A stretch of DNA of 64,000 nt from Tubiluchus corallicola (Eukaryota; Animalia; Priapulida). Location of the stretch: the NCBI GenBank assembly GCA_030141605.1, contig JAQGDQ010000109.1:62001-126000 (forward strand), in the 5' to 3' direction. Below, one piece after another: positions 33,639 to 39,549 of this stretch. Both the position numbers and the translations under genes were made by a program. How positions within the stretch are numbered: the stretch's first letter is position 1; each line of letters opens with the position of its first letter. Under the pieces are notes generated by a model. The model saw only the letters and a program-made list of their open reading frames with translations. It had not been told where the DNA came from and ran no database searches.

Positions 33639-33706
33639 TTATAATTCCCCAATCAACAGTTTCCGAACCAACTCTCGAAGTTCTTCCTTATCGATACATC
33701 CATTTT
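33639..33706 (-). CDS. Terminal coding exon of the neuropeptide precursor (second half of the EF-hand)
   Basis: Strong polypyrimidine acceptor, correct phase, completes the loop D-V-D-E-N-G-C-I-D-K-E-E followed by an amphipathic helix and TAA. Confidence 0.85.
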
Positions 33707-36700: not shown

Positions 36701-39549
36701 TTTCGCGTCTTTGGCACGAGTAAGCGAGAATGACGTACGAGGCACAGAAGGCGTCTTTGGTTACCGTGGTTACCGATGTTTGTTTGCCGATCTTTCATGA
36801 CCTCGTGACTGCACTCATAACGCCATTCCGGGCAGGCGCAACGAAAAATGGTGGTTCTTCACATTCAATACCGCTAACAACGAAGTGATAAAAATGAAAA
36901 GAAACATATTTTACAGTAAGTTTATAAAAAATAAATTGGATATTCGTAATGAGGGTAGGATTTTAAGTTGTAAAAGCTTATATTATAGTGAGGGTTTAGT
37001 TTGACTTTAAATGTCATGTCTGCACGATTTGCCATTTTTATACTAATATACTGTCATACAATTTTATTAAATGTCAGTCATTTATTTAAGACTTAAATTG
37101 ATTTTGTGTTTATTGTCAAGATTGCTTCTGTTACAGATTTTCACTAAGTTAATTAACTTTCGTACATCTCTGATAATATCAGCAAGTGGCTTCTGTGGAA
37201 ATATATGTTGACACTAGAGATAGTAATTCCCTAGTGAAAACAACATTCAAAAATCATAGCAGGTGTTACGTCTGATTAAAAGACTAATATCACAAAGTAA
37301 TTAGAGTTTCGATGCCATTCTTCTGTAACAGTGGGAATTTTCGAACATTATGTGTTGTATTCTTTCGTGACGCAAGCTATCCTTTGGTGACTGCTGCCTT
37401 ATTATTACAATTATTACCACAGTGGTTCATTATAAAGCTGCCTTTATTGCCGTTTTTCAGCTAAATAATATTGGTAAGGTGAGATAATTTCTTGACAAAC
37501 CAACTTCGGAACAGCTCATTCATGCATTTGCTACAAGTCGACTAGACTACTGCAACTTCCCTCTTTTTGATGCATCAGGCAAAAATTTGATCACACAACC
37601 CACTTTTGGATCAGTTACACTGGTTGCCTGTGCACTTCCGGCTAGAATTTCAGATCTTGTTGCTTGTGTGCATGAATGGTGATGCCCCCAATTACTTAAC
37701 AGAGTTACTTTCATGGTATATGCCTAGTAGACAGTTGAGATGCAGTAATTTACACAATTTGAATGTGCCAAGGATTAATCTTGCCACTTATGGTGGTCGG
37801 TCGTTTTTGTATGCTGCCTTGCATCTCTGGAGTCAACTACCTCTGCATGTCAAAATGTCTCCATCATTTTCTTGTTTTAAATCTCAAATAAAACACTTAT
37901 TTTCATGGGATTTCTGTAACTTATAATCTGTAAATTTCAGTCACCTGACTTAATTGAATTTCAATTTGTATAGCGTAATAGTTTTTTTAGTTCGGTGACT
38001 TATTGTACTTTTTAATTGTGTAAAGCCGACGAGCCATCTAGGAAGTCAGGCTAATAAATTTTTATCATTATCATTATCATTATCATTATCATTATCATTA
38101 TTATTATTATTATTATTATTATTATTATTATTATTATTATTATTATTATTATTATTATTATTATTATTATTATTATTATTATTATTATTATTATTATTAT
38201 TATTATTATTATTATTATCATTATTGTTGTTGTTATTAAAGCTCTACAAAGACAAAACGACAAAAATTAATCATCTATACATAAGCCCCAAGTTCGCGGC
38301 TTATTTTACGAGGATTAGTGATGCTACCAAGCTCCAGGTTGTCATTCGGGATCTAACTATAACATTTCCTGGCTTTTATAGTACAAACATGCTCTATTAT
38401 TTTGTTTTCACACACTAAAAGTTCATAGTGGCGAACTGGCAGCCATTGAGCGAGTGAATAACTATTACAGCTTATTACCGGCAGTGATTTCATTTGTGAA
38501 ATTACCCGTCCACATTATCCTGAAAGCTGCTCTCTTGCAAAACTGCGTTTGCTCTTATTTTCTACCCCAAACAGTAGTCGTTAAAAGCTAATCAAATTTG
38601 TTGTCGTGCATAAAACCGGCTTAAATATTCATAACCACACACGTGATATTTGACGTAGCAAAATCTCGACATCACGTACACGCGTGATCTCGCGGGAGAC
38701 GCGATCATACCTACCGCATGCTGCATTATTCATTAAAAATCGCAAGCGTTTTAACTTAAAACACTTAAAAACTGCCTTGAAAGACCAAGATTAACTCTGT
38801 GAAGAGTCATTAAATTTAATTCATTATTGGTGCTGTAGAAAAGAGAAAACTGTATCAAGTAAGCTGTAGTGTACTTATTTTCGTGTAGATTATAGTTTGT
38901 TAACTAGTAACAATTCTTCATCATCATCATCATCATCGTCATCGTCGTCGTCGTAGTCGTCGTCGTCGTTCGTCGTCAACAGGAACAACAACAACAACAA
39001 TATGTTAGATATTTAGCTGTATATTTTTAAAACTTTCTTACCATCTACGTCTATGTCTGTAAAAAGTTGTTGCGTAATGATTGATTCAATAATTTCCGGT
39101 GAGGCCACTTCCTGTGGCCGCCGCTTGCCGAATGCTGTGCTCAAGTTGTGCCAATTTCTTTTACCGAATGCGGTGCTAAGACTGTGCCAGTTCCTCTTCT
39201 CCCACGGCCCACTCAGGTCACCGATTGCATCCGTAGAATCCCTTTTCCCAAACGTCGTCCCTAAATCATGCCATCCCCGCTTTCCGAAGGATGTACTAAG
39301 GTCATGCCAGCTCCTCTTTTCGAGAGGCGTCATCTCTTCTGTTGCCCGCTTTCCCCAACTCGTCTGTAGATCATGCCAGCCCGCCCTTTTGCCAAATGTG
39401 GTACCTAGATCGTGCCAGCCTCTTTTATCTGTGTCTTGTTCTAGTAATAAACTGTCATCGACTTGACTTTGGTCGTCTTCAAGCGCTATTGTGGCAGTTA
39501 TAGCGAGGCTAAGCAAAAGCAGGTACACCTGCATACAATTGAAAGACAT
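33639..39549 (-). CDS. AstB: Myoinhibitory peptide / allatostatin-B (Wamide family)-like neuropeptide precursor with C-terminal EF-hand (2 coding exons, 191 aa)
   Basis: Coding exon 39549-39042 (acceptor upstream, exon starts at 39572): signal peptide MSFNCMQVYLLLLSLAITATIA, acidic spacer, then KR-flanked GWHDLGTTF-GKR (x2), AGWHDLQTSW-GKR, SWHDLSTSF-GKR, NWHSLSTAF-GKR, NWHNLSTAF-GKRR. Donor G|gtaag at 39042/39041 joins in phase 1 to acceptor tttcttttttttag|AA at 33706; that exon (33706-33639) gives ..LFTDIDVDENGCIDKEELRELVRKLLIGEL*. The W-x-D-L-x-x-x-W-amide pattern matches arthropod-type MIP/AstB. Family assignment is by motif recognition only. Confidence 0.88.
34840..35060. repeat. (GAT)n(AAT)n(AAC)n microsatellite
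   Basis: Direct reading. Confidence 0.97.
35062..37294. repeat. Pair of about 220-bp diverged direct repeats (35062-35281 and 37072-37294) enclosing about 1.8 kb; possible LTR-element remnant
   Basis: Shared CATTTATTTAAGACTTAAATTG, GATTTTCACT.AGTTAATTAACTTTCGTA, TTGACACTAGAGA, AGTGAAAACAAC, AGCAGGTGTTA.GTCTGATTAAAAGA. Confidence 0.7.
37440..38235 (+). mobile_element. Decayed L2-clade LINE 3' fragment ending in an (ATT)n tail
   Basis: LIHAFATSRLDYCN, LHWLPV, APNYLTELL, YGGRSFLYAA..LW..LP motifs typical of the L2 ORF2 C-terminus; (ATT)n at 38062-38235. Confidence 0.85.

Follow-up and report, generated by a model that had tools for sequence, protein, structure and literature searches.

In the priapulid Tubiluchus corallicola, a precursor of the MIP/AstB family consists of a hydrophobic leader, six W-x6-F/W-Gly-Lys-Arg peptides, and an acidic C-terminal tail with a single EF-hand, the loop of which is assembled by splicing. 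The gene lies on the minus strand of the window, the 64,000-nt stretch of contig JAQGDQ010000109.1 that was analyzed (positions 62,001 to 126,000), and its open reading frame (ORF) begins with an ATG at 39549. This architecture is practically certain. By analogy with known systems, the tail may act as a calcium-triggered self-association tag that packs the prohormone into dense-core granules, a reading to which a probability of roughly 0.45 is assigned.

The start codon and predicted signal peptide (residues 1-23 to 1-26), recognized from the ORF and hydropathy, occupy 39472..39549 of the minus strand, on which all features of the gene are located. They are preceded by a 5′ untranslated start of the coding exon (39550..39572), placed from sequence only behind a likely splice acceptor at 39573. 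The peptide exon ends at 39042 (508 nt, phase 1) and is followed by the donor GTAAGA at 39041. From there, a phase-1 GT-AG intron of 5335 nt (33707..39041) separates positions 3 and 4 of the EF-hand loop and terminates at an acceptor at 33707, which is preceded by a polypyrimidine run (11/12). The first part of the tail, comprising the linker, the entering (E) helix, and loop positions 1-3, was identified from sequence at 39042..39120, while the last coding exon (33639..33706) contributes 22 codons and the stop codon, covering loop positions 4-12 and the exit (F) helix. Beyond the stop lies a likely 3′ UTR (33097..33638), with the first AATAAA hexamers at 33181 and 33102. The spliced product is 191 aa long, and the unspliced, read-through ORF stops at 39013.

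The junction is covered by X1, a single 597-nt contig in which letters 1-516 correspond to 39557-39042 and letters 516-597 to 33707-33626. The match to the peptide exon halts at the donor, the 81-nt loose end is the last exon together with the first 13 nt of the likely 3′ UTR, and the intron is absent. X1 comes from one study, is taken as RNA by guess, and is ~95% identical to the window; since ~5% of sites differ, its source is a related individual or species and not the window's own transcript. By joining both exons exactly, X1 bears out the in-phase splice from 39042 to 33706 that had been proposed in a preliminary description of this DNA, and the coordinates given there for the donor, acceptor, and last exon proved correct on re-check. 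A near-identical run of DNA (X2), which continues from the exon through the donor into the intron, may be the source of the window DNA; it leaves the last exon uncovered, a gap that carries no weight. Among the runs on record, none was listed as RNA from the window itself. It is extremely improbable that the exon join is an artefact and that the gene reads through to 39013. Although X1 is one contig of a related organism with a guessed RNA status, it unites the two exons exactly, the Priapulus caudatus model contains the whole tail, and of the 2099 AG sites that the window contains downstream of the donor, the acceptor at 33707 (exon start 33706) alone completes the EF-hand pattern. Two other pyrimidine-rich intron acceptors, at 38832 and 35977, were considered and leave the EF-hand motif incomplete. 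Intron read-through as the main product was rejected.

The signal peptide has a hydrophobic core at about residues 5-23, with hydropathy reaching 2.6 in 9-residue windows. Behind it, 39127..39420 encodes six predicted amidated peptides and two acidic spacers, the second of which is likely a decayed peptide copy. Each copy is followed by a Gly-Lys-Arg amidation and cleavage site, and all six begin with Trp and place six residues before the terminal aromatic, which is Phe in five peptides and Trp in one, the latter peptide being identical in the database proteins P0002 and P0003. Protein similarity searches returned named neighbors that are mostly prothoracicostatic/MIP precursors, with the P. 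caudatus "prothoracicostatic peptide-like" protein P0002 as the nearest (47% identity). The repeats and these neighbors uphold the earlier assignment to the MIP/AstB precursors.

Signal peptide, repeated Trp-x6 amidated peptides, and dibasic sites are common to the window's protein and to MIP/AstB/PTSP/WWamide precursors of the Wamide superfamily, the closest being P. caudatus XP_014663362.1. In contrast to the MIP/AstB Wamide precursors, five of the window's six peptides end in Phe-amide and not Trp-amide, and a C-terminal EF-hand is added that goes unmentioned where Wamide precursors are described in the available portion of PMC7270403. The same portion files the P. caudatus orthologue, with its matching Phe/Trp endings, as a Wamide precursor and reports the terminal Trp as critical for MIP receptors (PMC7270403). 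Set against that report, it is a second oddity of this precursor that most priapulid peptides end in Phe-amide.

In the spliced product, the loop contains D1, D3, N5, G6, C7, I8, D9, and E12. The PROSITE-type pattern for the 12-residue loop (ligands at 1, 3, 5, 9, and 12; hydrophobic residue at 8) and the 29-residue EF-hand register were both applied. The pattern matches the spliced product, P0002, P0005, and P0091, with one match per protein and no second EF-hand found in any chain. In the register, each of the four scored sequences retains 8/9 core hydrophobic positions along with the calcium ligands. Because ligands and core are both preserved, the tail is better read as a folded, paired domain than as a bare acidic spacer. 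The canonical EF-hand recognized in the preliminary description is confirmed by the loop pattern and the core positions, and on the 191-aa product the loop Cys is, as had been stated, the sole Cys after the signal peptide. When the tail was shuffled, the pattern was present in 24 of 100000 shuffles. In its 47-aa form, the tail has a pI of 4.05 and a net charge of -8.

Profile and structure searches were conducted mainly with the orthologues. Pfam, run on P0002 and P0005, matched EF-hand_6 and EF-hand_1 to P0002 at E 2e-4 and EF-hand_1 to P0005 at E 1e-3, all below the curated cut-offs (scores of 21.2 vs 25 and 18.5 vs 25.4). A single-sequence AlphaFold2 model of the P0002 tail contains helices at 3-23 and 30-41 (mean pLDDT 76), with the first helix extending into the loop. 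With this model, Foldseek gave 0 matches at E 0.001, and the best VIA-align result (Z 6.0) led to generic helical hairpins with no clear EF-hand match. The full P0002 precursor, modeled by AlphaFold2 with a 4-row alignment, reached a mean pLDDT of 38, too low for a fold search, with values <50 for 208/213 residues. Atlas structure neighbors of P0002 150-213 are mostly EF-hand proteins at TM 0.55-0.66, below the tool's naming bar, and in a PDB sequence search, chance TPR repeats ranked first, with EF-hand proteins at E 0.03 or worse. Homodimer prediction for P0002 169-213 scored 0.13 in both runs, which gives no answer either way.

P0002 ends in the same EF-hand as the window's protein, with 26/39 residues of the helix-loop-helix identical. 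The peptides of the two species share 5-11 of 10-11 residues, and the spacers share 1/9 and 4/14. P0003 breaks off at the loop position where the read-through form does. Wider searches (76 and 43 hits) recovered P0005 and P0091, two precursors whose repeats end in Phe-amide and whose EF-hand tail has no Cys, and 14-16/33 tail residues are identical between the two scored groups. A region-only search with the P0002 tail recovered only P0002 itself among 6 candidates. At closer range, X1 and the window disagree at 23 positions of the first exon, 21 of them listed, and at 7 of the second piece, 5 of them visible. The 26 visible differences fall in 25 codons, of which 22 are synonymous; the 3 replacements lie in the signal and in the two spacers. 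Every one of the eight changed tail codons is synonymous, as are all five visible differences in the last exon, and the tail is under purifying selection.

The tail extends well beyond priapulids. A stored set of 115 proteins contained 100 of under 800 aa with at least two Wamide-like repeats, and the EF-hand pattern is present in 3 of these 100. The named proteins among the other 97 are nearly all from arthropods, and the 97 include two proteins from tail-bearing genes in which the intron is read through. Spiralian tails were read by eye in paper supplements and were neither aligned nor scored. Across the whole supplement of Williams 2020 (PMC7270403), an EF-hand follows the last Gly-Lys-Arg and closes the precursor in two of 31 entries, P. 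caudatus and the limpet Lottia gigantea; the tail is absent by eye from the other 29. The accessible part of De Oliveira 2019 (PMC6425005) contains the tail, by eye, in four scaphopod sequences, three chitons, and the caudofoveate Scutopus; none was found there in oyster, scallop, pearl oyster, or Platynereis. Within the accessible part of Thiel 2021 (PMC8557429), the tail was seen in the nemerteans Baseodiscus and Cephalothrix. Nine nemertean fragments in that part reach an in-frame stop, a count that leaves out one off-frame entry and one chimeric model, and by eye two have the full hand, three the first helix only, and four nothing (PMC8557429). Stumps reduced to the helix were noted in Lineus, two Cerebratulus, and a Capitella model in these partial sources.

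In the same by-eye reading of partial supplements, all 11 spiralian loops keep D1, D/N3, D5, and E12. Full or near agreement with the loop pattern is seen in seven; position 7 is Gly in the three chitons, and position 6 is Ser in Graptacme. The Cephalothrix loop equals that of P. caudatus at positions 1, 2, and 4-7, Cys7 included, and the entering-helix pattern is common to priapulids, chitons, and nemerteans. Given the same place, the same family, and this shared detail, homology of the mollusc/nemertean and priapulid tails is favored over convergence. The preliminary description had treated the fusion as peculiar to the window's gene, which was too narrow, as the tail is common to P. caudatus, molluscs, and nemerteans. 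A priapulid-only fusion was rejected given the spiralian copies. From these sequences, the tail was very probably ancestral to protostome MIP precursors. In the simplest history, it would have been present in the protostome ancestor and lost repeatedly, with losses in arthropods, nematodes, tardigrades, most bivalves, Aplysia, Octopus, Lingula, and the listed annelids.

Alternatively, the repeats may have grown out of an ancestral secretory protein with an EF-hand, of which the tail would be a relic, weakly useful and now being lost. The many independent losses and the helix-only stumps of Lineus, two Cerebratulus, and the Capitella model fit this view, but the ligand positions are intact in three phyla, changes between the window and X1 tails are synonymous only, and a separate exon 5.3 kb away has been retained, which makes a relic quite improbable. 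A co-released signal, or "cryptic peptide," that is Ca2+-loaded in body fluid and has its own receptor or binding partner is somewhat easier to entertain, though still unlikely. Every tail seen lies behind a dibasic site and would thus be released, and its constraint equals that of the peptides in the priapulid comparison (26/39 against 5-11 of 10-11 identical). The allatotropin/orexin precursors likewise keep a C-terminal domain over long times, according to the available part of PMC5818035. However, the positions kept across phyla are, by eye, calcium ligands and buried core with no surface motif, and the tail end has no amidation signal.

The sorting tag remains the preferred reading, and its proposed mechanism would proceed as follows. 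The signal peptide would direct the precursor to the ER, and the loop would then bind Ca2+ in the lumen of the calcium-rich Golgi and of the granules. Peptides with a single EF-hand form pairs when they bind Ca2+, as their exposed hydrophobic face needs a partner, and by the same principle two tails would pair through this face into a two-hand domain. The paired acidic tails (net -8) would concentrate the otherwise unstructured prohormone into budding granules. Convertases would cut at Lys-Arg, the six peptides would be amidated, and the 47-48-aa tail would be co-stored and co-released. In priapulids, the pair is perhaps locked by an interchain disulfide through Cys7. The suggestion that the tail dimerizes through its Cys is possible for the window, for P. 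caudatus, and for Cephalothrix among the nemerteans, which keep Cys7; it is not general, with Cys7 missing from 12/15 full loops (P0005, P0091, and 10 of the mollusc/nemertean loops). An obligatory disulfide was rejected on this count of 3/15. In the preliminary description, a tail with an EF-hand would be cleaved off, and its length of ~47 aa has been revised, with 48 aa following the last Gly-Lys-Arg and starting with Arg-Pro. The 47-aa form requires cleavage before Pro, which is rare for convertases, so the product is more likely to have 48 aa.

Against a sorting tag, the tail is dispensable in many lineages. Because it is absent or shortened in so many, MIPs in general must be able to undergo sorting without it, and its frequent loss is the strongest argument against an essential role of any kind. 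Comparable precursors made of repeats also enter granules with no domain like this. A role short of sorting has been weighed as well, in which the tail, monomeric or weakly dimeric, would help the precursor fold or leave the ER, or would buffer calcium inside the granule. This is about as doubtful as release as a signal: one site per precursor makes a poor buffer, and a single EF-hand requires a partner for its exposed hydrophobic face. In its favor, the tail is the only foldable handle of a chain otherwise predicted to be unstructured (pLDDT <50 for 208/213 residues), it is acidic (pI 4.05), and nucleobindin precursors are calcium-binding proteins as well as peptide sources in the accessible text of PMC9004410.

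A C-terminal EF-hand in the MIP family seems to have gone unremarked, while precursor-borne EF-hands as such have precedents in allatotropin, nucleobindin, and a snail gene. No mention of an EF-hand in MIP/AstB/WWamide precursors was found in the literature searched, with key subscription papers outside its coverage. The term "EF-hand" is absent from the accessible text and supplement of the Wamide review (PMC7270403), from those of Thiel 2021 (PMC8557429), and from passages of PMC3890597, PMC5818035, PMC6188537, and PMC6629687; "EF hand" is absent from the available part of PMC6660194, and in that of De Oliveira 2019 (PMC6425005), "EF-hand" occurs only in a reference title. Automatic InterPro annotation may already flag such MIP precursors. 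The orthologous sequences are already public. MIP/AstB precursors have been described as plain repeats from arthropod, annelid, and nematode models that lost the tail, and a folded domain shared by priapulids, molluscs, and nemerteans alters the view of what the ancestral precursor looked like. As a slowly evolving marker, the tail could be used to trace the MIP family as neurophysin is for NG peptides, a use that also parallels the C-terminal domain linking allatotropin and orexin (both in the available part of PMC5818035). At 45 residues and easily synthesized, it offers a test case for prohormone self-sorting into dense-core granules.

In the ESM Atlas, P0002 lies nearest to allatotropin clusters, with a feature similarity of 0.92 for the whole protein and 0.83 for the tail. 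By eye, allatotropin (orexin-type) precursors resemble the window's protein in the order of peptide, dibasic site, and acidic tail with one EF-hand loop. They differ in having a single peptide, a longer stretch of helix ahead of the loop, and an exit helix that is short. This tail was seen by eye in insects, molluscs, annelids, nemerteans, brachiopods, and phoronids in partially accessible sources, and InterPro IPR018247 is listed for mosquito allatotropin in the accessible part of PMC9387463. A conserved precursor domain links allatotropin to orexin, though it is not termed an EF-hand in the available part of that work (Elphick 2018, PMC5818035). The allatotropin and MIP receptors belong to different GPCR groups in the accessible part of PMC8557429.

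The paired EF-hand proteins (calmodulin type, nucleobindin, and Cab45) have at least two EF-hands, and the window's protein has only one. Cab45 itself is a multi-EF-hand protein. A snail interneuron precursor with an EF-hand, known as HCS2 and linked to pleurin, reportedly encodes peptides different from MIP. Judged by its title, the report of this gene describes presumed neuropeptides together with a region bearing an EF-hand motif (Bogdanov et al. 1998, PMID 9622259), a title cited in the available parts of PMC8398477, PMC5455113, and PMC6425005. As described in part of PMC9004410, nucleobindin/nesfatin precursors share the signal peptide, dibasic sites, and EF-hand motifs, and theirs bind calcium and release peptides; unlike the window's precursor, they are large proteins with a leucine zipper, long peptides, and no short amidated repeats. 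Luminal, Ca2+-dependent oligomers of Cab45 sort cargo at the trans-Golgi, according to the accessible part of PMC4862333. The proposed likeness is Ca2+-dependent self-association for sorting, although Cab45 is a separate protein and the tail is part of the cargo.

Neurophysin, carried by vasopressin/oxytocin and NG-peptide precursors, is likewise a folded C-terminal domain kept or lost by lineage, and it is presented as a precursor-borne, chaperone-like domain for regulated pathway targeting in the available part of PMC5818035. Its cysteine-rich fold and unrelated sequence set it apart from the window's tail, with one Cys after the signal peptide, so that neurophysin may serve as a working model only in how the tail would function. 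More tentatively, and with doubt prevailing, the lone C-terminal EF-hand could be an ancient homologous sorting module of MIP/AstB, allatotropin/orexin, and perhaps pleurin-type precursors. It would then represent a calcium-switched "second neurophysin" of the bilaterian ancestor, lost many times, which would pair precursors in the Golgi and could even co-package different ones.

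The C-terminus of P0003, a related precursor of 182 aa, stops at the EF-hand loop position at which the window's read-through form also stops. This break in the protein suggests that the gene encoding P0003, from a third species, shares the intron position of the window. The annelid-type MIP precursors ELU01469.1 of Capitella (PMC7270403, supplement) and P0035 have an end that begins by resembling the tail's entering helix before it diverges. This ending may be either a stump or the product of a gene model that lacks the last exon.

Six peptides are predicted from the minus strand (39127-39420), five with a Phe-amide ending and one with a Trp-amide ending. 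The single Trp-amide peptide has the same sequence in the window, in the Priapulus caudatus orthologue (P0002), and in P0003. All peptides of two further EF-hand-tailed precursors (P0005 and P0091) end in Phe. For MIP receptors, the terminal Trp is reported to be critical in the Wamide review (PMC7270403). The second spacer (39238-39197, minus strand) carries at its end a decayed peptide copy, which retains Asp-Leu-Ser and one Trp; both its initial Trp and the Gly needed for amidation have been lost.

A short dispersed repeat (33787-33824) lies close to the acceptor and is matched by many contigs of X2, a DNA run near-identical to the window. Within the intron, the stretch 37591-37926 looks like the terminal part of a LINE-type ORF; a Pfam scan of this stretch returned no match. 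Separately, the window contains an immunoglobulin-domain exon cluster (1675-19185) with duplicated and inverted copies, and its Pfam matches to I-set, Ig_2, and Ig_3 exceed the cut-off. These exons lie at 13093-12557, 9134-8787, and 2040-1675 on the minus strand and at 14913-15266 and 18862-19185 on the plus strand.

A single EF-hand loop also ends most of the allatotropin precursors compared by eye from two supplements (PMC6425005, supplement 3; PMC8557429, supplement). The precursors compared come from insects, molluscs, annelids, nemerteans, brachiopods, and phoronids. Among them, two brachiopods have lost the loop, as have some Hymenoptera and some of the paralogues (PMC6425005; PMC8557429).
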